DNA of 57,974 nt from Bacteroidia bacterium. Lineage in GTDB: Bacteria > Bacteroidota > Bacteroidia > Bacteroidales > VadinHA17. A program made the translations under genes and the position numbers. Of this stretch, positions 2,892 through 47,367 are shown piece by piece. A model generated the notes under the pieces. It was not told the origin of the DNA. It searched no databases and worked only from the letters and a program-made list of their open reading frames with translations. Position 1 is the stretch's first letter. Each line of letters begins with the position of its first letter. Location of the stretch: positions 1 through 57,974 of the forward strand of contig JAPLDY010000033.1 of assembly GCA_026391595.1 (NCBI GenBank). Direction: 5' to 3'.

Positions 2892-5423
2892 ATGAATAAA
2901 AAACGAATAATTCACCAATCTGTCAGTCTGTTATTTGTTTCACTATTAGTATTAAATTTTGTATCAGCAGACGCTCAGCGGCAAATGGAAAACCTGGGAC
3001 GAGGCATTGTTGCTGTTCGCACAGGCACAGGCTCCGTATTTATAAGCTGGCGCCTTTTAAGCCGCGATCCTGAAAACGTTGCCTTTAACGTTTATCGCCA
3101 AACAGATAATAAGAAGCCTGAAAAACTCAATTCACTACCTGTTACATCGGTAACTTATTTTATCGACGACAATGCCAATTTAACCTTGCAGACTGCTTAC
3201 TATGTGACAACCATATCCGAAAATTTGGAAGGTCCTTCATGTAAATCATTTATCTTACCGGCCAATGTATCACAGAGACAATATCTTGCAGTACCGTTAC
3301 AAATCCCGGAACCAGGAGATATCGCAGGGCGGAAGTACTATTATAGCGCAAATGATGCCAGCGTCGGAGATCTGGATGGAGACGGCGAATATGAATTTAT
3401 TTTGAAATGGGACCCATCCAACTCTATCGTAGCTGCACAGGGAGGCTTGACCGGAAATACAGTTATCGATGCCTATGAAATAAATGGGAAGTTGTTGTGG
3501 CGTATTGACCTTGGGAAAAATATCCGTTCAGGGCCTACGTACACTCAGTTCCTTGTGTATGATTTTAATGGTGACGGAAGAGCTGAAATGATTTGTAAAA
3601 CCGCTGATGGTACCATTGACGGTAAAGGCAACTTCATAGGTGATAAAGATAAAGACTGGAGGACTCTGGAATCTTCAGATCCAACCTTCGGAAGAATTGT
3701 CAAAGGCCCGGAGTTTGTAACTGTTTTTGATGGATTAACAGGTAGAGCCCTTGCCACAGAAACTTATATTCCTGAACGTTTTCCTCTCGACGGATGGGGA
3801 GGTATTGGTGGAAACGGAGGGAATGACACAAACGGCGGACGGAGCGATCGTTTTTCGGCCGGGGCAGCTTATCTCGATGGGGTTCACCCAAGTGCTGTAT
3901 TTGTTCGTGGCTGGTACGGCCGTACTGTAGTTGCCGCCTGGGATTACCTCGATGGGAAGCTCACCTCACGATGGGTGTTCGATTCAAAAAACAGTGAAAA
4001 TCCATACTCCGGGCAGGGCAATCACAGTGTCAGTGTTGCTGATGTGGATAATGATGGGAAGAATGAATTTTGCGTAGGAGCCATGACCGTGGATGATGAC
4101 GGCAAAGGGCTTTACACTACAGGCCTTCGCCATGGCGATGCCCTGCATATATCCGATATGGATCCATATCGTCCGGGATTAGAAGTATTTGGCATACATG
4201 AAAATGAAGGAAAGACAATTGAATTGAAAACACCTGGAGCGGCAATGTTTGATGCGAAAACCGGGGAAGTTCTGTTCAGCGTAGGACCTGGTGCAGATGT
4301 CGGACGAGGTGTTGCCGCTGATATCGACCCTGCTCATCCGGGTTTTGAAAACTGGGGTGGGCCCGGCGGACTGAGAGATGTGCATGGTGTAACAATAACT
4401 CCTAAAACACCCTCTTCGACGAACTTCGTAGTATGGTGGGATGGCGATCTCACCCGCGAACTTATAGATAAAAACCGTATTGATAAATGGGACTGGAACC
4501 TGGATAGTACGATAAACCTCTTAACCGCTGAAGGATGCGTCTCGAACAATGGAACCAAAGCAACTCCATGCTTAAGTGCAGATATCTTTGGCGACTGGCG
4601 GGAGGAAGTCATCTGGAGGACCCCCGACAATTCTGAATTACGCGTATATACGACAGTCATTCCCACTGACTACCGTTTCCGTTCATTTATGTGCGATCCG
4701 CAATATCGTCTCAGTATTGCCTGGCAGAATGTTGCATATAATCAACCTCCGCACCCCGGATTCTTTTTTGGTGAAGGGATGAAGTTATCTGCGCTAACAA
4801 ATACCGGTTATAAACTTTTTTTTGCTGACAATTTTAATAATCCCATTGATACAAATATATGGGTGCCGGAAATTGCTACTTTGCCTGATTCAAAAGTGTA
4901 TACGCAGAATGGGAAATTAGTTTTGGACACAAAAGGCGGTGTTACTGTCTGGTTAAAAAGACGCTTAAACGGTAATTTTATAATTGAATTCGACAGGAAG
5001 GTAATTGTGGCAAATGGCAAGAACGACCGCCTATCCGACCTGAATATGTTCTGGATGGCTACCGATCCTCGTAATCAGGATTTGTTCACCAGAAACGGGA
5101 TTCTCGAGAAATATGACTCCCTGCGACTTTATTATGTTGGCATGGGAGGGAACAATAACAGCACAACCCGTTTTAGAAAATACGAAGGTGATGGGACACG
5201 TAGACTTCTGCAGGAATATAAAGATGCTGAACACCTTCTTAAGCCTGACCATACTTATCATATTAAGGTAGTAATGGAGAACGGAAGCACCTCATTATGG
5301 GTAGATAGTATTTGTTACTTCGTCTATAAAGATCCTTCTCCGCTACGGGAAGGTTATTTTGGTTTTCGTTCTACATGGTCGCATCAGGAGATAAGTGGTT
5401 TCAAGGTTTTTTGTCACCAATGA
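2892..5423 (+). CDS. rhamnogalacturonan endolyase (PL11, YesW-like) fused to a C-terminal DUF1961/YesU-like domain
   Basis: Signal peptide, then the PL11-like propeller pattern (FNVYR..., SVGDLDGDGEYEFILKWDPSN, FNGDGRAEMICKTADG, VADVDNDGKNEF, ADIFGDWREEVIW, AWQNVAYNQPPHPGFF). The last ~220 aa (NIWVPEIA...GKLVLDTKGG...FGFRSTW) resemble the DUF1961 beta-sandwich family. Confidence 0.7.
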   Translation: MNKKRIIHQSVSLLFVSLLVLNFVSADAQRQMENLGRGIVAVRTGTGSVFISWRLLSRDPENVAFNVYRQTDNKKPEKLNSLPVTSVTYFIDDNANLTLQTAYYVTTISENLEGPSCKSFILPANVSQRQYLAVPLQIPEPGDIAGRKYYYSANDASVGDLDGDGEYEFILKWDPSNSIVAAQGGLTGNTVIDAYEINGKLLWRIDLGKNIRSGPTYTQFLVYDFNGDGRAEMICKTADGTIDGKGNFIGDKDKDWRTLESSDPTFGRIVKGPEFVTVFDGLTGRALATETYIPERFPLDGWGGIGGNGGNDTNGGRSDRFSAGAAYLDGVHPSAVFVRGWYGRTVVAAWDYLDGKLTSRWVFDSKNSENPYSGQGNHSVSVADVDNDGKNEFCVGAMTVDDDGKGLYTTGLRHGDALHISDMDPYRPGLEVFGIHENEGKTIELKTPGAAMFDAKTGEVLFSVGPGADVGRGVAADIDPAHPGFENWGGPGGLRDVHGVTITPKTPSSTNFVVWWDGDLTRELIDKNRIDKWDWNLDSTINLLTAEGCVSNNGTKATPCLSADIFGDWREEVIWRTPDNSELRVYTTVIPTDYRFRSFMCDPQYRLSIAWQNVAYNQPPHPGFFFGEGMKLSALTNTGYKLFFADNFNNPIDTNIWVPEIATLPDSKVYTQNGKLVLDTKGGVTVWLKRRLNGNFIIEFDRKVIVANGKNDRLSDLNMFWMATDPRNQDLFTRNGILEKYDSLRLYYVGMGGNNNSTTRFRKYEGDGTRRLLQEYKDAEHLLKPDHTYHIKVVMENGSTSLWVDSICYFVYKDPSPLREGYFGFRSTWSHQEISGFKVFCHQ

Positions 5424-8043
5424 TCCCCGGTAGAAAAATTCCATTGAGTCCCCATTGTGCGACGCTGTTGGTACTTATACGCCGGTTCTCATCCAGTTCG
5501 TTCATCACTTCAGGAGGATATACTTTCTGAGTTGAATACATGGAACGGTTGCTGTAAGAACGTCCTGAAAATTCTGACCATGCTCTTTCAGCCAGTCTGG
5601 GATCGTTCTTAGCCAAAGCTGCATAAGCGGTAAGCCGTGGGATCAGGAAGCCATTCACAGGCAAGTTTACGTTTTTTTCAGAACGCGAAGGATCATTCTT
5701 TGGCATGGAGTAATATTCACAGTACTCCAGCCACGATTTCATAAATTCTTTATGATCGAGAAAAGATAAAAGCTCAAACATCATTTCGGCACCACCCATA
5801 ATTGTAGCAAGATGCATTGAGTGAACCTCATTGCTTTGATCTTCTTCGAGTGTTACAACATCCGTAGCAGGATCGAATCCGAATACTCCTTTCCCTGAAA
5901 AGATTCCATGTGGCATTTTGGAAAAACAGGTCATTCCCGTTACAATCTTATCTCTCCATTTTGTATCTCCGGTGCGTTCCCATTCGGTCATCCAGTTGGA
6001 AACGAGACTGATCCAGTCGGGACCAAAGCGCAAGCGGGCGGGAGCTTTGACAGGGGCCTGATCGAAAGGCAATGCCAGACGCATTGGATCGAGATTGACA
6101 ATGCTGTTTTCGGCGTCAATCATCTCTCGCATAATATCACCTACCCGTTCGTCTGTGGTCAGATAATAATAAAAACGGCGGAATCCAGCCTGAGCGATGC
6201 GGGCTTCTTTGGCCCCGCATCCCCAGTGTGAGACATTGTGTCTCGAACCGAGGCCTTTAAGGCGTCCAATGTGGTAGCAATCGACTTCACCGGTGTGGCG
6301 TGTCATAGCTTCAGCCATTTTGAAAGTTCCGGGATCGCCGGAACGCAAAAAGCTGTACCACAACCACATATCAGGTGCCAGTTCGGAATTGTCCCAGGCC
6401 ATGCCGCCGATATCATAACGCCAAACATGGCGGGGAGGGTCCTGAGAGTGCATGATATCGCCATAATTCCAGAATCCGTACCAATAGTGCTGATCGATCA
6501 TTTTCCGGTAATAAAGAATACTGCTGTCTAATTGATTTTCAATCCACAGCCTGACAGGTGTCGAGCGATCAGGCAAACTCCATAAATTACCAAATGCGCC
6601 AGCCTGATGATAATATACGGGGGTGCTGACTAACCTTGCCGGTTCAGCCCCCTCATGACTCATTGTTGCCATTTTTTCTTTTGATGGCACCGAACTTTGC
6701 GGGAACAGCATCAGTTCGCTGGTACGAGCTACACCATATGGTGTGCTCAATCCTTCCTGGACATCCTCATAGGTAGAATTCAGGCCATGGGCAATTGTAT
6801 CATAATGACGCAGATCCATGGCTTGAGCGTCAGGAGACCACATACATACTTTGAGTTGTCCTTCAGGGCTCCTCGTTTTTTGAACTTCCAGGGAAACAGG
6901 GAAAGATTGCCAGAAGTTCTTAAGGCTTACAGCCAGTCCTCCGCTGACATCACCGGCATAAACAAGTCCTTCAGAACGATTACCAGCTCCTGCTGCCAGC
7001 CAGCTCGATTCAGTGCCGGTGCGTTTGGTTATGGTAAACCCATTGGGTGAGCTCTGAACAAGCTTAAAACCATCCCATACTGCAAAATCTGTCAGCAATT
7101 GTCGATTGGGTTCAGTGTAGGTTGCCTTGTCAGGTATCCGTTCGCCGGTTAATTGTACCTGGTAAGGGTTTCTCATAGCAGGATGTGAGATCATTCGCCG
7201 TCCGTCGAGAGGTTGAATAGGCTCATCCCATAGTCCTCCCTTCTCGCCAGAAAATGCTACATGCCGGTTTTGAATTTCTTCACGAAAGGGTACGTTGAAA
7301 ACTATACTGAGTTCCTTGATAAAATCTTTCTTTTCATCTCCGTCAAAAACGATGCTGTGCACCATCCGTACATCTGATTGTCCGGCATAGAAATAAAGGT
7401 AAATGGAGAAAGGCAGCCATTCCTTTTGACTGGTCAGGGAAAGATGTTTGCCTTCGATTTTTACAACAGCCCGGACAGGTCCGCTTTGTTCCAGTGTCAC
7501 CCTGGATGTTTTTCCTGTAAATTTTTGATAACGAATGATTCCATTGTTTTCAAACTGGCTGCGATCCTCAATAGTACAAATCAGTTGTCCGCCCGAAACC
7601 ACGGTGTTTCCATTAAGAACCATCTCTTCTATAAAATTATTTCCTGAAAGAGGAATGCGTACCTGGAGGAGACCTGTATTGATCTGGAAGTATTTTGCAT
7701 TCCGGGTAACAATCAGTGGATTCTCCGGAGTAAAAGCTTTAGTACCCTGAACCAGAAACGGCCCTTGTTCTTTATCTGACAAAGAGACTGCCATTCCGCT
7801 CCATTTAACGGAACCATCAGGCCAGAAAGCCAGCGGCCAGGTCTGAACAGGAAATATTTTTCCGGTAGATGTTTTAAGGATGAACATCTGATTTTTCTGA
7901 ACTTTACCCTTTTCCCATGGAATACCAAAGCTTTGGCCTTGTCGCGTATCCTGCACCTGGGTTAACCATTTTACCGGAGCTTCCTGGGACATCAAATTCA
8001 TGACCCACAATGCGGTCATAATGAGTACAATAATTCTTTTCAT
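5401..8043 (-). CDS. large secreted polysaccharide-active protein, possibly PL26-like exo-rhamnogalacturonan lyase
   Basis: 880-aa ORF with signal peptide MKRIIVLIMTALWVMNLMSQ. The block HYWYGFWNYGDIMHSQD...WRYDIGGMAWDNSE...GLGSRHNVSHWGCG recalls exo-RG-lyase family proteins from memory only. The 3' end converges on, and overlaps, the PL11 gene by 23 nt. Confidence 0.55.
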   Translation of the reverse strand: MKRIIVLIMTALWVMNLMSQEAPVKWLTQVQDTRQGQSFGIPWEKGKVQKNQMFILKTSTGKIFPVQTWPLAFWPDGSVKWSGMAVSLSDKEQGPFLVQGTKAFTPENPLIVTRNAKYFQINTGLLQVRIPLSGNNFIEEMVLNGNTVVSGGQLICTIEDRSQFENNGIIRYQKFTGKTSRVTLEQSGPVRAVVKIEGKHLSLTSQKEWLPFSIYLYFYAGQSDVRMVHSIVFDGDEKKDFIKELSIVFNVPFREEIQNRHVAFSGEKGGLWDEPIQPLDGRRMISHPAMRNPYQVQLTGERIPDKATYTEPNRQLLTDFAVWDGFKLVQSSPNGFTITKRTGTESSWLAAGAGNRSEGLVYAGDVSGGLAVSLKNFWQSFPVSLEVQKTRSPEGQLKVCMWSPDAQAMDLRHYDTIAHGLNSTYEDVQEGLSTPYGVARTSELMLFPQSSVPSKEKMATMSHEGAEPARLVSTPVYYHQAGAFGNLWSLPDRSTPVRLWIENQLDSSILYYRKMIDQHYWYGFWNYGDIMHSQDPPRHVWRYDIGGMAWDNSELAPDMWLWYSFLRSGDPGTFKMAEAMTRHTGEVDCYHIGRLKGLGSRHNVSHWGCGAKEARIAQAGFRRFYYYLTTDERVGDIMREMIDAENSIVNLDPMRLALPFDQAPVKAPARLRFGPDWISLVSNWMTEWERTGDTKWRDKIVTGMTCFSKMPHGIFSGKGVFGFDPATDVVTLEEDQSNEVHSMHLATIMGGAEMMFELLSFLDHKEFMKSWLEYCEYYSMPKNDPSRSEKNVNLPVNGFLIPRLTAYAALAKNDPRLAERAWSEFSGRSYSNRSMYSTQKVYPPEVMNELDENRRISTNSVAQWGLNGIFLPGIIGDKKP

Positions 8044-8157: not shown

Positions 8158-8736
8158 ATGGGCTTCCTGCAAAAACTCATGCCTCCCGACAGATGGAAAC
8201 TTCCGGTCCTGATAGCCGGTGGCATTTTTACAGGATTATTCCTATATGCTTTTCATCTTTCAAATGCACCATCATATCTTGGCAACAAGCCTGAAGCTTG
8301 TATAAACTGTCATATCATGGCCCCTCAATATGCAACATGGGTGCATAGTTCTCACCGCGAAAAAACAAACTGCAACGATTGCCACGTTCCACATAATAAT
8401 ATATCCAATAAATATTTCTTTAAGGCTAAGGATGGCTTGAGGCATTCCGCAATCTTTACTCTGCGCCTTGAACCACAAGTGATCTTTATCAAAGAGGCCA
8501 GCAGGGAAGTGGTTCATAAAAACTGCTTACGGTGCCATAAAGAATTAATAACCGATACAAAACTTTTAGCCTATACAAGTGAAACACACAATTTCAGAAT
8601 GGAACGAAAATGCTGGGAGTGTCACAGGGAAACACCTCATGGAAGAGTAAACAGCCTCTCCAGTGTTCCCTGGGCCAGGGTGCCTCTTCTTAAATCACCC
8701 ACCCCGGAGTGGTTTGAAAAAATGATAATAGAATGA
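8158..8736 (+). CDS. nrfH: cytochrome c nitrite reductase small subunit NrfH (NapC/NirT tetraheme family)
   Basis: N-terminal TM anchor and four CxxCH heme motifs (CINCH, CNDCH, CLRCH, CWECH). Located directly upstream of nrfA. Confidence 0.9.
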   Translation: MGFLQKLMPPDRWKLPVLIAGGIFTGLFLYAFHLSNAPSYLGNKPEACINCHIMAPQYATWVHSSHREKTNCNDCHVPHNNISNKYFFKAKDGLRHSAIFTLRLEPQVIFIKEASREVVHKNCLRCHKELITDTKLLAYTSETHNFRMERKCWECHRETPHGRVNSLSSVPWARVPLLKSPTPEWFEKMIIE

Positions 8737-8751
8737 TATAAGATAATTATA

Positions 8752-10245
8752 ATGAGATCAATACAGGAAATACTCAAGGGAAGACCATGGCTTGGATGGC
8801 TGATTTTTCTGACTACGGTAGTAATAGTATTTCTTCTTGGGATGCTTGCCTCTTCAATAATGGAAAGAAGAGCTGAAGCAGTATTTGCTTACACTCCAGA
8901 AGTTAAATTTTCGGGGAATGAACCTCGAAGTTCAGTCTGGGGCGAGCTCTTTCCAAGGGAATATGATTCCTATTTAAAAACTGCCGACACAAGCTTCAGA
9001 AGCAAATACAATGGCAGCGCTATGATTGATATGCTCAGGGAATCACCGCGTATGGTTGTCTTGTGGGCAGGATATGCTTTTTCCAAAGAATACAGTCAGG
9101 GGAGAGGCCATTATCATGCAATCGATGATATAAGGAACACACTCAGGACAGGCACCGTCCCCAGTCCTCAGCCAAACACCTGCTGGACATGCAAAAGCCC
9201 TGATGTACCGCGCTTAATGAAGGAAACAGGGACGGCAGGATTTTATTCAGGAACGTGGGATACAAAAGGCTCTGAAATAATAAATCCGATAGGTTGTGCC
9301 GACTGCCATGATGCAAAAACGATGAACCTGCATATTTCGAGGCCAGCTCTCATTGAAGCTTTAGAAGCACAGGGAAGAGACATATCAAAGGTGACTCACC
9401 AGGAAATGAGAAGCCTTGTTTGTGCTCAATGCCATGTTGAATACTATTTCAATAAGAAAAAAATAGAAGGTGTTGCATATTTAACATTTCCCTGGAAAAA
9501 CGGCACTTCTGTCGAAGAGATAGAGAAATACTATGAAGAGACAGGTTTCACAGACTGGACCCATGCTTTAAGCCGCACTCAGATGCTTAAAGCTCAGCAC
9601 CCCGATTATGAGATATTCTTGACAGGAGTACATGCTTCAAGGGGTGTATCATGTGCTGACTGCCATATGCCTTTTATAAGCGAAGGAGGGCAAAAATTCA
9701 CCGATCATCATATTCAGAGTCCGTTGAACAATGTCGCTAACTCCTGTCAGGTTTGCCACAGGGAGGAGACAGAAAAACTTATCAGCGATGTCTATTCGAG
9801 GCAGGATAAGATCATGGAAAACAGGATTATCCTTGAAACACTGCTTGTAAGGTGTCATGTTGAGGCAAAAACAGCATGGGACCTGGGAGCTTCAGAAGAT
9901 CAAATGAAGGATATACTTAATAGTATAAGGAAAGCTCAATGGCGCTGGGATTTTTCTGCTGCAGGACATGGCAATTCATTTCATTCTCCTGTTGAAGTAA
10001 GCAGGATAGTTGCCGGAGGTATTTCTTTTGCCCAGGATGCCAGGGTACAGCTTGCAAGAGTGCTGGCATCACTTGATAATAACAGTGAAATACCTTATCC
10101 CGATATTAATACCAAAGCCAAAGCCCAGGCATTCGTTGGTCTCGACCTGAAGAAATTCAATGAAGAAAAGACAAGTTTCATCGAAACGATCGTACCTCAA
10201 TGGCTAAATGCTGGCAGTGAGAGAGAAAAAGGTTATAATAAATAA
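8752..10245 (+). CDS. nrfA: ammonia-forming pentaheme cytochrome c nitrite reductase NrfA
   Basis: Diagnostic CxxCK active-site heme motif (CWTCK) plus four CxxCH motifs (CADCH, CAQCH, CADCH, CQVCH). 497 aa with an N-terminal anchor/signal. Confidence 0.92.
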   Translation: MRSIQEILKGRPWLGWLIFLTTVVIVFLLGMLASSIMERRAEAVFAYTPEVKFSGNEPRSSVWGELFPREYDSYLKTADTSFRSKYNGSAMIDMLRESPRMVVLWAGYAFSKEYSQGRGHYHAIDDIRNTLRTGTVPSPQPNTCWTCKSPDVPRLMKETGTAGFYSGTWDTKGSEIINPIGCADCHDAKTMNLHISRPALIEALEAQGRDISKVTHQEMRSLVCAQCHVEYYFNKKKIEGVAYLTFPWKNGTSVEEIEKYYEETGFTDWTHALSRTQMLKAQHPDYEIFLTGVHASRGVSCADCHMPFISEGGQKFTDHHIQSPLNNVANSCQVCHREETEKLISDVYSRQDKIMENRIILETLLVRCHVEAKTAWDLGASEDQMKDILNSIRKAQWRWDFSAAGHGNSFHSPVEVSRIVAGGISFAQDARVQLARVLASLDNNSEIPYPDINTKAKAQAFVGLDLKKFNEEKTSFIETIVPQWLNAGSEREKGYNK

Positions 10246-14173: not shown

Positions 14174-15187
14174 ATGAAAAGAAAGATTTTCCATGCAATT
14201 GTTACATTACTGATTACTCTTGTCGCAATATCATGCGTACCGGGGAAGAAGTACAAAACACTCCAGGATACCAGCAGGCAATACATGGATGAGAGAGACC
14301 AATTCAAAACCGACAATATAGGTCTTGATATGGCCAACAGGGAACTCGAGTCAAAGATGGCAGTGCTTGAGAAGCAACTTGGCACTGTTAAAGAAGATAT
14401 ATCAAAAGCCCAGGGTGATCGCGACAAGGCAATTGATGAATATAACAGGATCTCCTCAAAATATACAGAGCTTCAGAATGCACAGGAAGATCTTATCCGC
14501 GGCAATGTCAAGGAGACGCAGGATCTTCTTACAGAGCTTCAGGCTGCCCAGAAAAACCTGCAGGAAAAAGAAGACATTATGCGTCAGCTTGAGCAAACTC
14601 TTGATACTAAAAAATCTTCACTCGATGAACTTACTTTTGAGCTGGAAAAGCGTAATGCAAGGCTTGTTGAGCTGGAGAAGATTCTCGATGCCCAGAAAAA
14701 AATCGCACAGGATCTAAAGAATAAAGTTTCAGATGCACTTCTTGGGTTTGAAAACAACGGGCTGACAGTTACCAATAAAAACGGAAAGGTATATGTGTCG
14801 CTCGACGAGAAGCTGTTGTTCAAAACCGCAAGCTGGGATATAGATGCCAACGGTAAATCCGCATTAAAAAAGCTTGCAGGTGTACTGGAGAAAAACCCCG
14901 GTATTCAGATAACAATTGAAGGACATACCGACAATGTACCATATAAGCCCTCTGCCAGTGAGTTGAATGATAACTGGGATCTGAGCGTAAAAAGAGCCAC
15001 AACGGTTGTCCGCGTATTACTCGAAGGATCGAAAATTGATCCTGAACGTCTTACCGCCGCAGGGCGCAGCGAATATCTTCCGGTCGATTCACGCAATACT
15101 ACCGACGCCCGTCAGAAGAACAGGAGAACAGAAATCATTTTGACACCTGATCTCACAGAATTGTACAAGCTGATTGACAAGTATTAA
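14174..15187 (+). CDS. OmpA/MotB-family lipoprotein with central coiled coil
   Basis: Lipoprotein signal (LVAISC) and a long heptad-rich Q/E/K/L segment. C-terminal OmpA peptidoglycan-binding motifs are present (ITIEGHTDNVPY, NWDLSVKRATTVVRVLL, NRRTEIIL). Confidence 0.85.
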   Translation: MKRKIFHAIVTLLITLVAISCVPGKKYKTLQDTSRQYMDERDQFKTDNIGLDMANRELESKMAVLEKQLGTVKEDISKAQGDRDKAIDEYNRISSKYTELQNAQEDLIRGNVKETQDLLTELQAAQKNLQEKEDIMRQLEQTLDTKKSSLDELTFELEKRNARLVELEKILDAQKKIAQDLKNKVSDALLGFENNGLTVTNKNGKVYVSLDEKLLFKTASWDIDANGKSALKKLAGVLEKNPGIQITIEGHTDNVPYKPSASELNDNWDLSVKRATTVVRVLLEGSKIDPERLTAAGRSEYLPVDSRNTTDARQKNRRTEIILTPDLTELYKLIDKY

Positions 15188-15195: not shown

Positions 15196-16755
15196 TTACT
15201 TATTTTCATCTGAAAACTCCTGCAATTTCACTTTCATGTTTTCAAGTGCCTGCAGGAGATTTTCTTCAGGCTTCAGGAAATCCTGATTTTCCCAGAAGAG
15301 ATAATCATAATTGGTTATTGTCTTTGAAAATACCGAATGAATGGGAGCCAGCTCTTCCTTTTCGAACCTGCTCACATTTTCTGTTCTAATACCCGTAACA
15401 GCCAGTTCAAAGAATACATTGAACTGACTTTTGAAGAGCTTTTTCTTTTTCCTGGAGATAAAAACAAGATCGCCTCTTACATGATTAAGAAAATACCTGC
15501 CATTCAGTTTCCGGTAGCTTACAGAATATTTCACCGTCACAGGCCAGGTGTCAAAACCATGTAATGAGCTTGTGACAAAAGATTCCTTCATCTTTTGAAT
15601 ATACCTGGGATGAAGTTCGAAATCAGCATTTAACAAAGCATAATCATCAGTGTTTATATACATTGTTCCTCTGAAGAGCGGCAGGTCAATGCCTTCACGC
15701 TGTTCAAAATCAATAACATAGGCAGATTCATTGTCTGTCATAACAATGTCGGTTATTCTGTAGGAATACTCCGGCATGTTATCACTTTTCATGAAATCAA
15801 AATTGTTCCTCATGCCGTCAAGGTCGAGGCAGGTGCTTAATCCGGCTTTAAGCCTTATTGCAAGAGTATCGTCTAATGATGTGTTCTCTATCTTCCGGCT
15901 TTTATATATTTTAACCTGATCGTTCAGAAGGGTGTTTGAGTAGGAACTTTTATATATCTGAAGAATGGCTTCAGAATATATCTGCAACTCCTCTTTCTTC
16001 ATGACACCTTCCCTGTAAAAGCAGGTAAGAATTGCAGGTGTATTTCCATAATTCTTTTGAATTGAAGCAACACATTTTTGAATAATTTCCTGGGGCACAT
16101 GCGTCCTTATAATGATTTCAGGGATAGAAATAAAATCGCGGATAAGGCTGATATCAAAGTTATTACCGATGGCCTGCTCTATGGGGATCTCTCTTCTGAT
16201 ATACCCGAGATACGAGACAGAGATCGTATCAGGAAGTGATTCACGTGTAATTTTTAATCCGAATTCACCTCGTGCATTTGAGACCATTCCCTTTCCCTTG
16301 TCCTTTATGACCACTGTCGCAAAGGGCAGTGGCTCTTTCGTTTCAGCATCAGAAATAATACCTGAGATGTAAAATACTTCTTCAGGAGTTTCTGAGTCAG
16401 ACTTTACAAATGGAGAAGGCAGCGCCCTGGAAATTATTATATATTTATCGATTAATGTGTAAACCAGCGAATCACTCTGCAGGATGCTGTCGAGAATGAC
16501 TTCAAGCCGGAGCCTGGTGAATGTAAGATCTGTCTTATTTTCTGTATTTACCAGACGACTGTCGTAAGTGAAATTGTAACCGGTCTGTCGGGTTATTATG
16601 TTCAGGGCTGAGCCTGTTCTGACCACCCCGGCCCTGAAGGTAAAAAGCGAATCAAGGATGTTTTCCTGCCCGACTGCTGCCTGATTACAGGTAAGCAGTA
16701 TTATCAATGCAACGGCAGAGATTCTCCTGACCATATAGCCATTGACCGGGCCCAT
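15196..16755 (-). CDS. STN-like + CarboxypepD_reg-like domain protein lacking a TonB-dependent barrel; paralog of 18218..19531
   Basis: Signal peptide, then an STN-like segment (FTFRAGVVRTGSALNIITRQTGYNFTYDSRLV...LVYTLIDKYIIIS). Next is a CarboxypepD_reg-like segment (ISGIISDAETKEPLPFATVVIKDKGKGMVSNARGEFGLKI). The following ~330 aa are colinear with the 437-aa paralog (FYRE..., IYKSRK, YVIDF, DLPLFRGTMYI, YAL). At 519 aa it is too short for plug plus barrel. Confidence 0.8.
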   Translation of the reverse strand: MGPVNGYMVRRISAVALIILLTCNQAAVGQENILDSLFTFRAGVVRTGSALNIITRQTGYNFTYDSRLVNTENKTDLTFTRLRLEVILDSILQSDSLVYTLIDKYIIISRALPSPFVKSDSETPEEVFYISGIISDAETKEPLPFATVVIKDKGKGMVSNARGEFGLKITRESLPDTISVSYLGYIRREIPIEQAIGNNFDISLIRDFISIPEIIIRTHVPQEIIQKCVASIQKNYGNTPAILTCFYREGVMKKEELQIYSEAILQIYKSSYSNTLLNDQVKIYKSRKIENTSLDDTLAIRLKAGLSTCLDLDGMRNNFDFMKSDNMPEYSYRITDIVMTDNESAYVIDFEQREGIDLPLFRGTMYINTDDYALLNADFELHPRYIQKMKESFVTSSLHGFDTWPVTVKYSVSYRKLNGRYFLNHVRGDLVFISRKKKKLFKSQFNVFFELAVTGIRTENVSRFEKEELAPIHSVFSKTITNYDYLFWENQDFLKPEENLLQALENMKVKLQEFSDENK

Positions 16756-16769
16756 TATCCAGAGGCAGG

Positions 16770-17678
16770 TTATTTTTTTGACAGATGGTAAACATTACCA
16801 TCCTTCGAATAACTTAGGTTAAAGCTAGTACAAATTAAGCGAATAATTGTATCTCTCGACTGGATATCGATCGGAGAAGTCCATGTATTATCAAGGATCG
16901 ATGGATCATCGGCTTTAATATCCATATTATATACGCGCTTCAGGTCACTGAATACAATATGCAGAGTCTGTCCGTTGTACTCAAGTTTTTCTGTGTTCCA
17001 CGACATATAATTTGGATCCTGGTTCAATGTCTTTCCTGAACGATTGGAATCCATCGTCCCTATGTCACCAGGCACAAGTGTAAGGTCGCGTTTGCCTGAA
17101 TTATCATAAAGCATAACTTTCCCTGAAGTTACAAACACCTCGACTTCTGAAACAGCATTGTCTGTTATAACATTAAAAGAAGTTCCGACGACTTTTACAC
17201 TTGCTTTTCCGGCATCTATTGTAAATGGTTTGGATACATCAGCAGAGATTTCAAAGAATGCCTCTCCGGTGAGGGAAACCTGCCTGCTCTTTTTTCCGAA
17301 GTTTGAAAGATATGTAAGCTTCGTGTTCCGGTTTAAGGTAATAAAGCTTCCATCCGGAAGTGATACAATCTGATTCTTCTGATCATCGCCGGTGGATGCA
17401 ATGATCGTTTTGCTCAAAGAGTCGCTGTTCACTATGTATATTGATCCAATGCCGAGGCCTATCAGGACCAGGATTCCAGCGGCTATCTTCATGAACATGC
17501 TCCTGAAAAAAACCTGACTGTCAGTGTTTAATAATAGCGTAGCTGGCTCTTTATCCATTCTCGAATAGACTTTATTCCAGGCCCTGTCGATATCAATTTC
17601 CCTTGTATCTGACACCCCGGGAGCAAGTTTTTCCAGCTCCATGCCGATCAATTTCTCTTTGTTAGTTTTTTCTTTCAT
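16770..17678 (-). CDS. FecR-family anti-sigma factor
   Basis: Cytoplasmic N-terminus and a single TM segment (IAAGILVLIGLGIGSIYIV). Periplasmic FecR-type domain (FTIDAGKASVKVVGTSFNV). Starts 2 nt after the sigma factor gene ends. Confidence 0.88.
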   Translation of the reverse strand: MKEKTNKEKLIGMELEKLAPGVSDTREIDIDRAWNKVYSRMDKEPATLLLNTDSQVFFRSMFMKIAAGILVLIGLGIGSIYIVNSDSLSKTIIASTGDDQKNQIVSLPDGSFITLNRNTKLTYLSNFGKKSRQVSLTGEAFFEISADVSKPFTIDAGKASVKVVGTSFNVITDNAVSEVEVFVTSGKVMLYDNSGKRDLTLVPGDIGTMDSNRSGKTLNQDPNYMSWNTEKLEYNGQTLHIVFSDLKRVYNMDIKADDPSILDNTWTSPIDIQSRDTIIRLICTSFNLSYSKDGNVYHLSKK

Positions 17679-17680
17679 TT

Positions 17681-18217
17681 TTACTTTAGTGCTTTTCTGA
17701 ATTCCTTAAGCGCCCGCCCCATATTGGCTTCCACCGTTTTAACAGAGACGGATAGCTTTTCTGCTATCTCTGTATATCTTAATCCCTCAAACCTGTTCAT
17801 GCAGAATATCTGTCCGCATCTTTCCGGCAGCTTTTCAATTACCTTTGCGATTTTCTGCTGCAACTCGTTGTACTGAATTATATCCAGGGGACTTTCTGTC
17901 ATTTCTGTCTCCCTGTATACCATTTCCCTGGCATGTTTGTCGACCACCCTCGAATGGCTTAGCCAATGGAGACAGCGATTATGTACCGCCCTGAAGAGAT
18001 AACCGTTTAAAGAACTTTCTATTTTTATTTTTTGTCTGTCCTGCCAGAGCCTGAAAAAAAGGTCCTGAACAATTTCTTCTGCCGTATCATGATCCTGAAT
18101 TATTGTTTTAGCATATCGAACCAGTGAAACATAGGAGGATCTGAAAAGTGATTCGAACTGTCCTTTATCACCCTGCCGGATCCTCCTTATTATTTCATTG
18201 TCCCTGATCATAGGCAT
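17681..18217 (-). CDS. ECF-type RNA polymerase sigma-70 factor
   Basis: Region 2 (DTAEEIVQDLFFRLWQ) and region 4 HTH (LRYTEIAEKLSVSVKTVEANMGRALKEF). 178 aa. Confidence 0.9.
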   Translation of the reverse strand: MPMIRDNEIIRRIRQGDKGQFESLFRSSYVSLVRYAKTIIQDHDTAEEIVQDLFFRLWQDRQKIKIESSLNGYLFRAVHNRCLHWLSHSRVVDKHAREMVYRETEMTESPLDIIQYNELQQKIAKVIEKLPERCGQIFCMNRFEGLRYTEIAEKLSVSVKTVEANMGRALKEFRKALK

Positions 18218-19531
18218 TTATTCTCCCAGGCCTTCCCTGTCGCTGAATTTCAGCTTCTTACTGAGCTTTCGTATTGCCGATTCAATGCTCTGATCGGGCT
18301 CGATCACATTGTATTCGCCCCAGAAATCGGGATCAGCAAATGCGCTCACTTTATCGGAAAATACATCAGTGAACTTCAGCTTATCCTTTCCTGCAAATTT
18401 AATAACTTCCTCGTTAGTACGGTCTGTGACTGCTATTTCTGACATCGTGGTATAATAAGTATTGAATAGTTTCTTTTTCCAGTCAACCTTGAATTTAACC
18501 TCTGCCCTGGAATATTCGAAGTACCATTTGCCATTTTGTTCGCGGTATTTGGTCCGGTAAGTTGCAATTTCCGGAGTGACTTCCATCCCAAGCGGTTTCT
18601 TCCTTATGAATATTGACTGTGCTGCATCTTTATCAGAAAGGTTGAAACCAAATTCAGCTTCAGTCAGAGCGTATGAATCCATTTCTATATAGAGGCTTCC
18701 CATAAACAGAGGGATATCAACAGAAGGTTTTTGAACGAAATCTATAACATAATGTGGTCTGCCATCTATTTCAACAACACCGGAAAGCGAATAATTATAG
18801 TATTTCATTGCATCAATCGTAAGTATAGCCTCTGTATTCTTAGCAAGGTCAAGGTCGAGTGTGCTTACAGGCCCTCCCTGAAGTTTGAAAAGAACAGTAT
18901 CCATTTTTTCGACATCCGCACTTTTCCTTCCCTTGTATATCCTTGCGTTGTCAAAGCGGACATCATTGGCGTAGGGAGCTTTAAATATCTCCACAACTGC
19001 TTCTCCAATAGAAACATAAGTCCTGTTCTTACGGATAGTCTCTCTGTAGAATGCTGTCATCAGATTCGGGACCGACTCATAGTTCTTTCCTATCCTGGAG
19101 ATTGCCTTTGTTACGATATCATACGGATCGATCGGCTTTACAATAATCTCCTTTATTGGAATTGGCGCCTGCTCCATGGAAATGATGTTCTTATAACCCT
19201 TATCACGGAGAGAACTGATCGCAACTACCTTATTCTTATACCCGATGAATGTGAACTCAAGCTCTTTCGAAGCAAGAGATTCACCGATCTTGAGTGTGAA
19301 TTCACCATCAATATTGGTGACAATTGCAACGTTGGCATCTACAACTGCAACAGAAGCAAAAACAAGAGGGACACCTGATTCTGCATCAATCACCTTACCT
19401 TTTATGGTCAGATATGACTGCTGCTGTTCAGATTTCTTCCTCTCACCTGAGGCGCCTGCGACTGCTGTCTGAAATGCAAATACCAGTAGCAGAGCCGCAG
19501 CATAGAAAGAAATGTTCTTAAAAGTTTTCAT
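18218..19531 (-). CDS. CarboxypepD_reg-like domain protein, paralog of 15196..16755 without the STN segment
   Basis: Signal peptide, then LTIKGKVIDAESGVPLVFASVAVVDANVAIVTNIDGEFTLKI. The C-terminal ~330 aa are colinear with the 519-aa paralog. Its stop directly abuts the sigma factor start, with no gap. Confidence 0.8.
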   Translation of the reverse strand: MKTFKNISFYAAALLLVFAFQTAVAGASGERKKSEQQQSYLTIKGKVIDAESGVPLVFASVAVVDANVAIVTNIDGEFTLKIGESLASKELEFTFIGYKNKVVAISSLRDKGYKNIISMEQAPIPIKEIIVKPIDPYDIVTKAISRIGKNYESVPNLMTAFYRETIRKNRTYVSIGEAVVEIFKAPYANDVRFDNARIYKGRKSADVEKMDTVLFKLQGGPVSTLDLDLAKNTEAILTIDAMKYYNYSLSGVVEIDGRPHYVIDFVQKPSVDIPLFMGSLYIEMDSYALTEAEFGFNLSDKDAAQSIFIRKKPLGMEVTPEIATYRTKYREQNGKWYFEYSRAEVKFKVDWKKKLFNTYYTTMSEIAVTDRTNEEVIKFAGKDKLKFTDVFSDKVSAFADPDFWGEYNVIEPDQSIESAIRKLSKKLKFSDREGLGE

Positions 19532-19664
19532 GGCGTATTTAATTTGGTTATGACTTATGGATATTATTAATTATCCTTTTTCAATCCTAAGACCTGACTG
19601 ATGGCATTCTACCCTATTCTTAACATGAAAAATATTTTAGTATCTTACTTTTTTATTTAGGTCG

Positions 19665-20636
19665 ATGAAAGACTCACTGATCAGGCCGGCAAATGCGGTT
19701 GCTGCCGGATTTTCTTACCTAAGAGGCTCAATATCCGGAAGAACTACCGTTCTTGGGATGCCGCCGGCAGTGGGTGCCGAACTTACCAATTACTGCAACC
19801 TGAGATGTCCTGAATGCAACTCCGGTTCAGGGCAGATGACAAGGGAGCGCGGGTTCATGAGTGTTGATCTCTTTGAGAAGATCATCAAAGAACTGGGCCC
19901 ATACCTATATAATATAAACCTCTATTTTCAGGGAGAATCAATGATGCATCCGCAATTCTTTGTGATTCTCGAAAAATGCAGGGATATAAGCTCTACCCTT
20001 TCAACAAACGGACACTTTCTTTCCCCTGAGAATGCTGAGAAAATTGTCAGATCACAATTGGGAAAGATAATAATCTCGCTCGACGGGATGGATGAATCAG
20101 CATATACTTCTTATCGGGTGAACGGCAATTTCGAGACAGTTATAAACGGCATAAGGAATATTTCTGAAGCAAAATACAGAAATCCTTCGCATCTGAAGGT
20201 GATAATTCAGTTTCTCGTGAACAGGAACAATGAGCACCAGATACATGAAGCAAAACGATTTGCCGTTGAAATGCATGCTTCACTTTATCTGAAATCGATG
20301 CAGATCATAAACAAGGACTCGTATTCTTCATGGCTTCCTTCCTTAAGTAAATTCAACCGGTACAAAAAATACGGGAATGATTATTCTATCAAAAGCAGGT
20401 TGCCAGCCAGGTGTTCAAGGTTATGGTTTAATCCGGTCATAACATGGGATGGCAAGGTGCTTCCATGCTGTTTCGATAAAGATGCCGATCATGTTATGGG
20501 TGATCTTAACAGGGATTCATTCAGGGATATCTGGAAAGGGAAGGAGTACAGGAAATTCAGAGAAAGATTATTTACAGGCAGAAGGATGATTGCAATGTGC
20601 AGAAACTGCACTTCAGGACTTTTTACACCGTCATAA
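19665..20636 (+). CDS. radical SAM / SPASM-domain protein
   Basis: CX3CX2C cluster motif CNLRCPEC and a C-terminal Cys-rich SPASM-like region (CSRLWFNPVITWDGKVLPCCFD...CRNC). Confidence 0.8.
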   Translation: MKDSLIRPANAVAAGFSYLRGSISGRTTVLGMPPAVGAELTNYCNLRCPECNSGSGQMTRERGFMSVDLFEKIIKELGPYLYNINLYFQGESMMHPQFFVILEKCRDISSTLSTNGHFLSPENAEKIVRSQLGKIIISLDGMDESAYTSYRVNGNFETVINGIRNISEAKYRNPSHLKVIIQFLVNRNNEHQIHEAKRFAVEMHASLYLKSMQIINKDSYSSWLPSLSKFNRYKKYGNDYSIKSRLPARCSRLWFNPVITWDGKVLPCCFDKDADHVMGDLNRDSFRDIWKGKEYRKFRERLFTGRRMIAMCRNCTSGLFTPS

Positions 20637-46752: not shown

Positions 46753-47367
46753 TTATTTCACTTTTAATACGATCGGAGATAATGTCATTATTTTGCCATC
46801 AGGGCTAATAGCTTTGATATTCTCAAAAATAATTGTGTTTCCGCCTGAAAGCCGGGTTATCCTTGATTTCATTTCCTCAGTAAGTTTATTCCCTTTCGCA
46901 GAAATAGACTCCATTTCTCTTGACGTAACCATAGAGAAGCTTTCTATTTCAATCTTAATGTCCGTCATAAGATCAGGTAATTTAATCTCAAGCAGATCTA
47001 TTTTCAATGCATCATCTTTTAATAGGGTTCCGGAGTATTTTCCTGCGAAAATGGCTACAGGTTCTATCCTGAATTTCTTTTCAGCTACTTTCTTGTTGTC
47101 AACCAGAACCGATATTATCGATTCCCCCATCTCTAAGGGAACAGCTTCCCAGCCCTCAGCAGATTTTGCAATTGTTCCTTTTGTGATAGTAGCAGTCACT
47201 CTATCGGCTTTTATGCCCGGTACTGCTATTTCTACCGGATTATGAATACCCAGGTACAGAATATTCATATTGCCAGCAGATACAACAATATCTTTCATGG
47301 GTTGCTGAGCAATACTGATCATCGGCAGACTTAACAGTAATATAAGAAGGCAGGAACTCTTTTTCAT
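46753..47367 (-). CDS. stand-alone GldM-like Ig-domain protein
   Basis: Signal peptide. VVSAGNMNILYLGIHNPVEIAVPGIKADRVTATITKG resembles the repeated Ig-like periplasmic domains of gliding/T9SS protein GldM. This is from memory, not a search. Confidence 0.5.
   Translation of the reverse strand: MKKSSCLLILLLSLPMISIAQQPMKDIVVSAGNMNILYLGIHNPVEIAVPGIKADRVTATITKGTIAKSAEGWEAVPLEMGESIISVLVDNKKVAEKKFRIEPVAIFAGKYSGTLLKDDALKIDLLEIKLPDLMTDIKIEIESFSMVTSREMESISAKGNKLTEEMKSRITRLSGGNTIIFENIKAISPDGKIMTLSPIVLKVK

Follow-up and report, generated by a model that had tools for sequence, protein, structure and literature searches.

Signalling of the FecA-FecR-FecI type, and its Bacteroides counterpart, couples a FecI-type ECF sigma factor and a FecR-type anti-sigma factor to an outer-membrane transporter. 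In the current Fec paradigm, TonB drives the displacement of the FecR C-terminal domain (PMC12036975), and E. coli FecR cleaves itself between Gly181 and Thr182 (PMC12036975). In B. thetaiotaomicron, the N-terminal domains of SusC proteins bind the C-terminal domains of the anti-sigma factors (PMC2709373).

The locus analysed here lies in a 57,974-nt stretch of DNA (the window) and consists of four genes, A, sigma, FecR and B, which we refer to as the cassette. It shares with the systems above a FecI-type sigma factor, a FecR with FecR and FecR_C domains and a Gly-Thr motif, and a partner, B, whose STN (signalling) domain stands beside a TonB-box-like strand in a module homologous to and colinear with the N-terminus of FecR-linked SusC. 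Unlike their transporters, B has neither a plug nor a 22-strand barrel, and carries a predicted soluble LolA-like domain instead. The cassette also always encodes an STN-less paralog, A, as its first gene and, in contrast to the Bacteroides systems, has no SusD partner or PUL genes. No study on the function of the A-sigma-FecR-B cassette was found in the literature, and on its most likely reading it is a new kind of cell-surface signalling.

Organisation of the locus

All four open reading frames are encoded on the minus strand, with the coordinates given by the first-pass annotation, which had also described their close packing; the gaps between A, sigma, FecR and B are 0, 2 and 14 nt (Table 1). 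With Met8 as the start, which is the choice of one gene caller, B is a protein of 512 aa. No TonB-dependent transporter (TBDT) was found in the 58-kb window, and neither the window nor the annotated loci showed TonB or ExbBD genes beside the cassette.

Table 1. Features of the cassette, with positions in the window
Feature	Position	Strand	Description
Predicted ECF-type promoter	19588..19616	-	TAGGGTAG-N15-GGTCTTA; ends 57 nt upstream of the A ATG
Gene A	18218..19531	-	437 aa; signal peptide, NTE (CarboxypepD_reg), TonB-box-like strand, LolA-like C-domain, conserved tail; no STN
TonB-box-like strand of A	19136..19162	-	IPIKEIIVK, residues 124-132; translation checked
Sigma	17681..18217	-	178 aa; ECF, Bacteroidota FecI-like type
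FecR	16770..17678	-	302 aa; FecR-type anti-sigma factor
Candidate FecR autoproteolysis site	17181..17186	-	Gly165-Thr166 within VKVVGTSFNV
Gene B	15196..16755	-	519 aa; signal peptide, STN, NTE, TonB-box-like strand, LolA-like C-domain, conserved tail
STN (signalling) domain of B	16423..16647	-	residues 37-111; Pfam, AlphaFold2, Foldseek, SusC alignment
NTE / CarboxypepD_reg-like domain of B	16144..16374	-	residues 128-204; CarbopepD_reg_2, 54.7 bits
TonB-box-like strand of B	16105..16131	-	ISIPEIIIR, residues 209-217
C-terminal domain of B	15385..16095	-	residues 221-457; predicted open beta-barrel plus helices, LolA/RseB-like
Conserved C-terminal tail of B	15199..15384	-	residues 458-519; low model confidence

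The assignment of the two central genes as a sigma factor and FecR was borne out by profile searches. The sigma factor scored 173 bits against TIGR02985 (cut-off 126) and matched Sigma70_r2 and r4_2 in Pfam and NCBIfam; it is 42% identical to the cassette sigma factor of Parabacteroides distasonis, compared with 29-30% for a SusC-linked sigma factor of the same genome. FecR starts with a short cytoplasmic stretch and a single hydrophobic segment (about residues 62-84), followed by a FecR domain (residues 95-188, 63 bits in Pfam) and a FecR_C domain (residues 232-296, 28.7 bits). The motif [VI]x[VI]xGTxFx[VI] is present in 164 of the 166 FecR-type ORFs detected across the loci, a total that includes a few non-cassette copies. 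By the offset in the NCBIfam FecR alignment, Gly165-Thr166 would be the equivalent of the E. coli cleavage site.

The N-terminal module of B

The first-pass annotation had placed an STN domain in B only. In Pfam, B matches the whole 52-position STN profile at 19.4 bits, below the 28.4-bit cut-off, whereas the consensus of the B family scores 52.8 bits (E 3e-14) and 50 of 94 diverse B relatives match at E<=0.01. The fold itself is present in the AlphaFold2 model, in which residues 37-110 adopt a beta-alpha-beta-beta-alpha-beta-beta arrangement (pLDDT about 80-88), and Foldseek retrieves the N0 domain of PilQ and the signalling domain of FecA. The STN assignment holds at the level of the family.

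The NTE of B superimposes on that of SusC-dex (9hfj) with a TM of 0.85 and an rmsd of 1.7 Å in Foldseek, and profile alignments of the B family with SusC NTEs in the PDB, those of Bt1763, BT3090, RagA and 9gbc, gave E values of 1.6e-9 to 2.8e-6. Over its first ~217 residues, which comprise STN, NTE and TonB-box-like strand, B aligns colinearly with the N-terminal part of a canonical FecR-linked SusC (BLASTP E 1e-11; hhalign with the B family profile 98.7% probability, E 4.7e-16, the alignment ending at the TonB box), and the homology breaks off exactly where the SusC plug starts. The SusC used for comparison (STN 52-103, NTE 115-195, KLDEVVVVGYG, Plug 203-307) is one real example of the order STN, CarboxypepD_reg, plug that the first-pass annotation had given.

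Among 94 diverse B-type proteins, no other 9-residue window is as conserved as that of ISIPEIIIR (3.14 bits per position), yet this strand is predicted to be disordered (AlphaFold2 pLDDT below 50). Profile alignments set it opposite the TonB boxes of BT3090 (LDEVVV), 9gbc (LNEVVV), P. distasonis SusC (LDEVVV) and Bt1763 (VDEVVV), the last of which was defined by experiment (PMC7782687). A-type proteins of all clades retain the strand, and those of the gut clade read LSEVIIR, LDEVIIH or LNEIVVY at this position, which is near the SusC motif VDEVVV. Because A and B keep, as their most conserved segment, a strand homologous to the SusC TonB box, the cassette is probably still coupled to TonB and not independent of it. 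The strand could also bind another partner, or could simply be a legacy of the NTE module, given that Pfam PF13715 spans it.

The C-terminal domain and tail

The ~240-residue C-terminal domain of B matched no Pfam or NCBIfam model, and its sequence matched no PDB chain. Modelled alone by AlphaFold2 (pLDDT 81, pTM 0.79), it is beta-rich, with 10-11 long strands. Foldseek searches of the PDB returned the DUF1329 protein 4z48 (1.6e-7) together with 3bk5, 3buu and P. gingivalis LolA3 9tp6 (all four at E 1.6e-7 to 2.9e-6), as well as RseB 2v42, 3m4w and 2p4b (4e-6 to 3e-5). These LolA/DUF1329/RseB matches reached a probability of 0.99-1.0, yet a TM of only 0.22-0.41; outer-membrane barrels had a probability of 0.25 or less. 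The predicted model thus points to an open barrel of the LolA/DUF1329/RseB type and not to a transporter barrel, whole or fragmented. In agreement with the earlier proposal of a signalling N-terminus grafted onto a non-barrel domain, B is an exported protein in which the N-terminal module of a SusC transducer (STN, NTE and TonB-box-like strand) is joined to a predicted LolA/RseB-like open barrel.

The tail that follows is modelled at a pLDDT of 35-60. Residues F476, D484, W488 and P496 are invariant in a 51-sequence alignment of A and B; in diverse B-type sets, only W488 never varies, and F487, I494 and P496 are each at least 90% conserved.

Relationship and export of A and B

A and B are paralogs, as first noted (31% identity over 402 aligned residues, E 2e-68), and all of the shared sequence blocks quoted at that stage were found. 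Both contain CarbopepD_reg_2 (Pfam; residues 43-131 of A, 47 bits), and they have in common the NTE, the TonB-box-like strand and the C-terminal part, which measures about 300 aa (the folded domain and a ~60-aa conserved tail) and not the ~330 aa originally estimated. STN is confined to B, so that A is indeed a sensor-less paralog in the same unit. Neither protein has a Plug or TonB_dep_Rec match in Pfam or NCBIfam. Membership of TIGR04056, the SusC/RagA transporters, was rejected: A and B share with these the NTE (PF13715) and the TonB-box position that follows it, and their matches cover just positions 1-83 of the 981 in the profile and score 35-59 bits, where the cut-off is 368.

The signal peptides of A and B are predicted to be cleavable and non-lipoprotein, without a conserved lipobox, so that both proteins are predicted to be periplasmic; no outer-membrane anchor is evident in either. 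The first-pass suggestion of a surface-signalling module sensing something other than TonB-dependent import therefore needs modifying, in that the location is probably not the surface and coupling to TonB is probably retained.

Across clades, A clusters with A, B with B and the cassette sigma factors with one another; from the grouping of A and B, their duplication is ancient. A is the most conserved member of the cassette, its orthologs having a median identity of 76%, about the conservation of DXS and OmpA.

Conservation of the cassette and its putative promoter

The cassette occurs in many Bacteroidales, including human-gut Parabacteroides, and 84 orthologous loci were found. A neighbourhood survey, proposed at the outset, showed the order A-sigma-FecR-B to be kept in about 98% of 169 loci, which include P. 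distasonis and relatives that are 33-45% identical and whose flanks are unrelated. FecR lies directly upstream of B in 157/159 loci, sigma is at its conserved place in 151/153, and A is upstream of sigma in 142 of the 144 loci with enough sequence. None of 168 related loci has a SusC-like ORF less than 8 kb away.

A bipartite ECF-type motif, ATAGGGTAW-N15/16-GRTCWTA, lies upstream of A in all clades, and both it and the gene order persist between clades in which protein identity is down to about 27-42%. Its sole match in the window is the site in Table 1, with 0.19 expected by chance, and 2.2 Mb of related loci gave 136 matches, 130 of them at the site upstream of A; within +/-8 kb of the cassettes the motif was found there only. 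Both boxes are conserved in 69 orthologous upstream regions, with a variable spacer, and the same two boxes are present in distant clades. Across 82 unique sequences, conservation is 82-98% at the positions that the search pattern left free. From this sequence conservation, we infer that the motif acts as a promoter.

Proposed mechanism and alternatives

With a probability of about one half, we read the cassette as an ancient, autoregulated envelope-signalling unit of Bacteroidales that is FecA-FecR-FecI-like, with a transducer that is not an outer-membrane transporter; this transducer is probably an exported, LolA-like periplasmic protein coupled to TonB. The LolA-like domain of B would bind a hydrophobic envelope ligand (such as lipid, LPS or lipoprotein acyl chains), and binding would expose the TonB-box strand to TonB. 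Engagement of TonB would then displace the FecR C-terminal domain by way of the adjacent STN of B, FecR would be cleaved, and the freed sigma factor would direct transcription of all four genes from the TAGGGTA...GTCWTA promoter. The main output would be A, acting on the same ligand as a LolA-like carrier or handler with a TonB box.

TonB pulling normally requires the far end of a protein to be fixed in the outer membrane. A and B are apparently soluble, exported and without such an anchor, which suits binding and release better than force transduction and is in keeping with control of the RseB kind: B would sit on the periplasmic part of FecR through its STN and shield it from proteolysis, until off-pathway lipid, LPS or lipoprotein bound to the LolA-like domain freed B, FecR was degraded and sigma released. 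The cassette would then be an envelope-stress sensor whose TonB-box-like strand is unused in signalling. RseB is a LolA-like periplasmic protein controlling an anti-sigma factor, and its structures are among the matches of the domain-only model. RseB-RseA-sigmaE and MucB-MucA-AlgU likewise encode such a protein with an ECF sigma/anti-sigma pair; the anti-sigma factor of the cassette, however, is FecR and not RseA, B presumably contacts its partner through STN, and RseB has no sequence similarity to B and lacks STN, NTE and TonB box. In SusC and FecA transducers, the action of STN is positive (PMC2709373; PMC12036975), and shielding leaves the top conservation of the strand in A and B unexplained; we regard it as rather unlikely.

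It is less probable still that A and B are primarily TonB-associated working proteins, which might for example carry lipidated cargo with energy from TonB, or modulate or compete at the TonB-ExbBD complex, with sigma and FecR merely setting their expression, the signal sensed elsewhere and the STN of B giving at most abundance feedback. Both do carry an NTE and a TonB-box-like strand; the NTE has been proposed to serve TBDT-TonB complex formation, and two B. thetaiotaomicron TonB paralogs also have CarboxypepD_reg domains (bioRxiv 10.1101/2023.07.07.548152). A is conserved like housekeeping genes and, because the only motif site is upstream of A, A and B are the visible regulon. This reading does not account for one paralog having kept its STN directly downstream of the FecR gene in nearly all loci, and no TonB/ExbBD genes were seen beside the cassette in the window or the annotated loci. 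That B is a decayed SusC-like transporter fragment, or its C-domain a novel small outer-membrane barrel in an ordinary or degenerate SusC-type unit, would fit the SusC-homologous 217 N-terminal residues and the beta-rich C-domain, but is very improbable and largely refuted. The family is full-length and conserved (more than 1,255 B homologs, nearly all 500-540 aa; 1,248 C-domain clusters at 50% identity, 116 of the top 150 being 480-560 aa), none of 94 diverse members has a Plug or barrel match in Pfam, and both the Foldseek probabilities and the neighbourhoods without SusC or TBDT argue against it.

Comparison with other families

In predicted structure, the C-domain is best matched by the LolA / LolB / LolA3 / DUF1329 / 'outer membrane lipoprotein-sorting protein' superfamily. 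The domain is larger (about 240 aa plus the tail) and fused to SusC N-terminal modules; TM is only 0.3-0.41 and no sequence match is significant. DUF5686 (PF18939), found in Bacteroidota proteins with CarboxypepD_reg, gave matches in some A- and B-type relatives at positions ~110-245 of 669 (24-29 bits, below the 39.2 cut-off), and none in Pfam searches with the window's own A and B. This suggests a common LolA-like module behind the NTE. DUF5686 proteins are far longer, and to our knowledge have no link to sigma/FecR. Among Bacteroidota ECF systems, Dma is likewise non-canonical, and its sensing of the envelope involves no TonB-dependent transporter; unlike the cassette, it is a single polypeptide with an anti-sigma domain and an 8-strand outer-membrane barrel, and has no FecR, STN, NTE or LolA-like domains.

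In a P. merdae RNA-seq table (PMC12893687), two genes that we take to be A and B, by gene names and locus-tag spacing only, were both about 4-fold down.

Gene organization of the cassette

The cassette consists of four consecutive genes, which encode the exported protein A, an ECF sigma factor, an anti-sigma protein and the exported protein B. The first-pass annotation had described four same-strand genes with gaps of 0 to 14 nt and had named the two central ones as an ECF sigma/FecR pair; the ORF coordinates confirmed the packing (gaps of 0, 2 and 14 nt), and profile searches confirmed the pair. The sigma factor scored 173.4 bits against TIGR02985 (NCBIfam cut-off 126.4), also matched Sigma70_r2 and r4_2, and belongs to the FecI-like group of Bacteroidota ECF factors. 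The anti-sigma protein matched the FecR domain with 62.9 bits and FecR_C with 28.7 bits (Pfam). Together with a Gly-Thr self-cleavage motif, these matches indicate a single-pass protein of the FecR type, its FecR domain periplasmic, that is predicted to be cleaved. Its Gly165-Thr166, within VKVVGTSFNV, would correspond to Gly181-Thr182, the self-cleavage site of Escherichia coli FecR (PMC12036975). The motif was found in 164 of the 166 FecR-type ORFs detected in the loci collected for comparison, nearly all of which are cassette copies. A and B had been described as colinear paralogs on the basis of shared sequence blocks; every one of these blocks was found, the two proteins are 31% identical over 402 aligned residues (E 2e-68), and both contain CarbopepD_reg_2 (Pfam).

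Positions of the cassette and of other features in the window
Feature	Position	Strand	Description
A	18218-19531	minus	ORF, 437 aa
ECF sigma factor	17681-18217	minus	ORF, 178 aa
FecR	16770-17678	minus	ORF, 302 aa
B	15196-16755	minus	ORF, 519 aa
ECF-like promoter motif	19588-19616	minus	sole match in window; 0.19 expected by chance
OmpA-family protein	14174-15187	plus	convergent with B, 8 nt apart
Radical SAM/SPASM protein	19665-20636	plus	divergent from A
Pectin/glycan degradation genes	2892-8043; 38677-42815		RGL11 rhamnogalacturonan lyase with DUF6250, PcRGLX-like, GH2, GH39
Nitrite reductase pair	8158-10245	plus	NrfH-like and NrfA (cytochrome c552)
TerB/ABC fusion	34322-37441	minus	1,039 aa
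GldM-like ORF	46753-47367	minus	204 aa

The N-terminal module of B

B has an N-terminal extension without counterpart in A; the STN segment in it lies at window 16423-16647. When B was searched alone, it covered the whole 52-position Pfam profile of the STN signalling domain at 19.4 bits, under the cut-off of 28.4. However, among 94 diverse relatives of the B type, with identities of 27-46%, 50 matched STN at E<=0.01 (best E 3e-11), and the family consensus of the segment scored 52.8 bits (E 3e-14). In the AlphaFold2 model, residues 37-110 form a beta-alpha-beta-beta-alpha-beta-beta fold with pLDDT of about 80-88, and Foldseek matches included the signalling domain of FecA and the N0 domain of PilQ. 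The STN profile also returned PilQ and PupA from PDB sequences, none of them significant. Family profile and predicted fold thus argue that B carries an N-terminal STN domain, and the STN-like segment that had been noted in B, and not in A, is upheld at the family level. Because a canonical FecR-linked SusC transporter from P. distasonis (WP_005860198.1; L173:5375-8938, in a comparison locus) likewise reached only 25.1 bits, Bacteroidota STN domains are generally under-called by the Pfam model.

This transporter served as the comparison for B. In it, STN (residues 52-103) is followed by the CarboxypepD_reg-like N-terminal domain, or NTE (115-195), the strand KLDEVVVVGYG, and the Plug (203-307). 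The order STN, CarboxypepD_reg, plug given in the first-pass annotation therefore holds on this one canonical example, with the TonB box before the Plug, and the published statement that the NTE precedes STN (PMC7782687) is contradicted by it. B residues 58-223 are colinear with the N-terminus of this SusC (E 1e-11). The B-family profile aligned with it over 172 columns (hhalign probability 98.7%, E 4.7e-16), and this alignment, which also supports the STN assignment, stops where IslqEVIIR of the family meets kLDEVVVvg of the transporter. A profile of the NTE and the linker matched SusC N-termini in the PDB, namely 9gbc, the pair 9hfj and 8aa4 (BT3090), the pair 6ytc and 5t3r (Bt1763), and RagA, with E-values of 1.6e-9 to 2.8e-6. 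The linker aligned on LNEVVV, VDEVVV or LDEVVV in 9gbc, 6ytc, 8aa4 and 5t3r; the 9hfj and RagA alignments stop inside the NTE, short of the linker. In Bt1763, VDEVVV is the TonB box as defined by experiment; it comes directly after the NTE and has no structure in solution (PMC7782687). These alignments show that the N-terminus of B is a SusC transducer module that includes the TonB-box position.

At this position B has the strand ISIPEIIIR (residues 209-217). No other nine-residue window of the family is as conserved, yet the strand has a pLDDT of less than 50 in the AlphaFold2 model, a pairing that marks a linear interaction motif. It is a positional homologue of the SusC TonB boxes and may bind TonB. 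A-type proteins retain it, as IPIKEIIVK in the A protein of the window and as LSEVIIR, LDEVIIH or LNEIVVY in the gut clade. Membership of A and B in the SusC/RagA family TIGR04056 was rejected: the scores (45.9 bits for A, 35.3 for B and 58.8 for the family consensus) are far under the cut-off of 368, and the match is confined to profile positions 1-83.

Fold of the C-terminal domain and export

No Plug or TonB_dep_Rec domain was found by Pfam in A, B or the 94 relatives. The C-domain, a segment of about 240 residues (221-457 in B), gave no Pfam or NCBIfam match for A and B of the window or for the family consensus, and zero matches among PDB sequences; a single member of the 94 matched Pfam LolA_like (E 0.003). 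The domain-only AlphaFold2 model (pLDDT 81, pTM 0.79) consists of 10-11 long antiparallel strands with interspersed helices. Foldseek matched this model to the DUF1329 structure 4z48 (E 1.6e-7), to 3bk5, an "outer membrane lipoprotein-sorting protein domain" (7.1e-7), to 3buu of the LolA superfamily (7.9e-7), to Porphyromonas gingivalis LolA3 9tp6 (1.3e-6 to 2.9e-6) and to RseB 2v42, 3m4w and 2p4b (4.4e-6 to 3.3e-5). The lipid-binding barrels of lipovitellin, MTP and ApoB were also among the matches, and outer-membrane barrels appeared only at probabilities of 0.25 or less. The LolA/RseB-type matches have probabilities of 0.99-1.0, but their TM-scores are 0.22-0.41 with an rmsd of about 10-17 Å, and because these TM-scores are low we assign the predicted LolA-like fold with moderate confidence. 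The model clearly speaks against a fragmented transporter barrel. The SusC homology of the N-terminus and the LolA-like predicted fold thus agree with the earlier proposal that B has no TonB-dependent barrel and that a signalling N-terminus is joined to a non-barrel domain, with an STN-less paralog in the same unit.

Some relatives scored 24-29 bits against DUF5686 (PF18939; positions ~110-245 of 669). Because these scores are below the gathering threshold of 39.2, and neither A nor B of the window at E<=1 nor the family consensus gave a match, membership in that family was rejected. In one 901-aa protein from the homologue search (P0380), an NTE spans residues 119-205, the match to the C-domain is confined to about 596-836, and there is a weak LolA_like Pfam match; given this longer architecture, the C-domain occurs in other contexts as well.

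A and B have cleavable signal peptides and no conserved lipobox. Lipobox-like cysteines occur in 0-20% of members, and lipoprotein anchoring was rejected on these grounds. Mature B-type proteins typically begin at Gln, immediately ahead of STN. We infer that A and B are soluble periplasmic proteins. The C-terminal tail of B (residues 458-519; window 15199-15384), which has an equivalent in A, is conserved and is modelled with low confidence. F476, D484, W488 and P496 are invariant in an alignment of 51 A and B sequences, and of these four only W488 stays invariant across diverse B-type sets. The tail may be a second interaction motif.

Conservation of the four-gene unit and its putative promoter

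Homologs of B number more than 1,255, with very few outside the range of 500-540 aa, and the C-domain search gave 1,248 clusters at 50% identity (E<=1e-3); the top 150 of these include 116 of B length and 11 of A length. The cassette had 415 genome matches. The genome scans covered the best 80 loci each, and more distant genomes were sampled one by one. The order A-sigma-FecR-B and its flanks (radical SAM/SPASM, OmpA-like and DXS genes) are kept in 84 orthologous loci in which B is at least 60% identical. In relatives at 33-45% identity the four genes are kept and the flanks are entirely different, and the same holds for the best 80 metagenome loci from a clade that is frequent in samples of the human gut. 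Over the 169 loci, counting those with enough upstream sequence, FecR lies directly upstream of B in 157/159, the sigma gene is present in 151/153 and A in 142/144. The first-pass annotation had called for such a neighbourhood survey, and the unit proved conserved. Median identities among orthologs are 76% for A, 74% for the sigma factor, 63.5% for B and 57% for FecR, compared with 79% for DXS. The Parabacteroides distasonis copy, whose flanks differ too, comprises WP_005856515.1, WP_005856513.1, WP_009276021.1 and WP_009276022.1, and B-type proteins also occur in the cultured Parabacteroides sp. PF5-6 and Massilibacteroides vaginae. By the genome and cluster counts, the cassette is conserved in at least several hundred Bacteroidales species, including the genetically tractable gut commensals P. 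distasonis and, as a published gene table suggests, P. merdae. In comparisons across clades, A, B and the cassette sigma each group with their own kind, and the identity between cassette sigmas is 42%, versus 29-30% with a sigma linked to SusC; both the unit and the A/B duplication are therefore ancient. CarboxypepD_reg matches on Chondrinema and Hymenobacter plasmids proved to be unrelated proteins.

The 133-bp region between A and the radical SAM gene contains an ECF-like motif of two conserved boxes, ATAGGGTAW and GRTCWTA, separated by 15-16 nt of free sequence. Of 136 matches to this motif in 2.2 Mb of loci, 130 are the site upstream of A, and the site is present in distant clades as well. 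This is the footprint expected of an ECF-dependent promoter, probably autoregulated. The flanking genes have no further site nearby, and the visible regulon is therefore the cassette itself. A scan for E. coli-type promoters and terminators gave nothing above chance.

The radical SAM/SPASM, OmpA-like and DXS genes were rejected as members of the unit, since they are syntenic in the window's own clade only and lack the motif. The OmpA-family neighbour (75% median identity), which shares this limited synteny and lacks the motif, has an N-terminal half with a coiled coil of ~200 residues; the linkage of the radical SAM gene is likewise restricted to the window's clade. Directly upstream of the cassette in P. 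distasonis lies a regulator of the OxyR type ("hydrogen peroxide-inducible genes activator"; L169:3139-4065), and none was seen in the other clades examined.

Proposed mechanism and alternatives

In the current definition of TonB-dependent cell-surface signalling, import and sensing are both the work of an outer-membrane transporter. The cassette shares with FecA-FecR-FecI signalling a FecI-like sigma factor, a FecR anti-sigma protein and an STN-bearing partner. However, the Fec partner is a TonB-dependent outer-membrane transporter with a plug and a 22-strand barrel, and B has neither. In the Fec model, TonB acts on the exposed TonB box of FecA and, via STN, the C-terminal fragment of FecR is pulled off the N-terminal fragment, which starts a proteolytic cascade (PMC12036975). 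In Bacteroides thetaiotaomicron, SusC N-terminal domains bind anti-sigma factors at the C-terminal domain and act positively (PMC2709373). By analogy, B would be the transducer and A the main output: the LolA-like domain would bind a hydrophobic envelope ligand, the TonB-box-like strand would engage TonB, the STN of B would signal to FecR, the sigma factor would be released, and the operon would be auto-induced. In its boldest form, to which we give about one chance in four, A and B would be the first Ton-motor clients to have a TonB box without being outer-membrane barrels: soluble LolA-like proteins with a borrowed SusC STN-NTE-TonB-box module, B coupling the sensing of lipidic cargo (lipoprotein, LPS or lipid) to TonB-driven ECF sigma release and A acting as a TonB-energised carrier or extractor of cargo, in an outer-membrane homeostasis pathway new to science and widespread in Bacteroidales, including gut Parabacteroides. 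The weak points of the proposed mechanism are that A and B lack an evident anchor for force transmission and that the TM-scores of the fold similarity are low.

Among the rival readings, B could protect FecR in an RseB-like fashion, as the RseB structures among the C-domain matches might suggest; such protection would leave the conserved TonB-box-like strand, which A also retains, to be accounted for separately. Alternatively, A and B could be TonB-associated working proteins whose level is just set by sigma and FecR, a reading consistent with a visible regulon that is the cassette itself, and one to be set against the STN domain of B, the domain type through which FecA addresses FecR. That A and B are a degenerate SusC, either truncated or with a hidden barrel, is essentially refuted: the N-terminal homology is what such a remnant would show, but the size and uniform length of the family, the absence of a Plug, the Foldseek results and the lack of an adjacent SusC-like ORF all contradict it. 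In 168 related loci, the surrounding 8 kb contain no ORF of at least 650 aa that resembles an NTE or STN, so the adjacent SusC-like transporter that the first-pass annotation had allowed for did not materialize, and the window contains no TonB-dependent transporter. Among loci inspected gene by gene, the only one nearby is a 732-aa protein on the opposite strand, two genes away (locus L088); it was rejected as a partner, having no STN or NTE on record and no conservation elsewhere.

The signalling logic is thus known, and what is new is a transducer that carries the SusC N-terminal module on a LolA-like domain, together with an obligatory STN-less paralog. STN, NTE, TonB-box-like strand, FecR and ECF sigma are here wired to a predicted non-membrane domain. 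Should lipid or lipoprotein traffic be what the cassette senses, Bacteroidota would have in it their own counterpart, assembled from other components, to the RseB/sigmaE logic of envelope stress, and the range of Ton-motor clients would be extended. If the TonB-box-like strand is non-functional, the cassette would still be a clean case of domain shuffling, from a transporter-linked switch to a periplasmic sensor. It also offers a direct handle on the unexplained role of the SusC NTE, and on the many Bacteroidota "carboxypeptidase-like regulatory domain-containing proteins".

NCBI already names the A/B architecture by its domains. Literature searches for the architecture, for links between LolA-like and anti-sigma proteins and for the RefSeq accessions turned up no study of function, and cassette-like genes were mentioned once, in a differential-expression table. 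There, P. merdae JCM9497 NQ542_RS07340 and NQ542_RS07355 are each about 4-fold down in Neu5Ac versus no-sugar medium by RNA-seq, and three TonB-dependent receptors are listed alongside (PMC12893687 Table 2). From their names and tag spacing, the two genes are probably A and B of the cassette.

Other genes in the window

The pectin and glycan degradation genes occur in a 58-kb window that has no SusC/SusD pair. Similarity of the 204-aa ORF to GldM, a gliding/T9SS protein, is confined to the C-terminal third and fourth domains; the ORF is a truncated gene or else a half that stands alone. The 1,039-aa fusion joins an N-terminal TerB domain to an ABC ATPase and an ABC-2 membrane domain.
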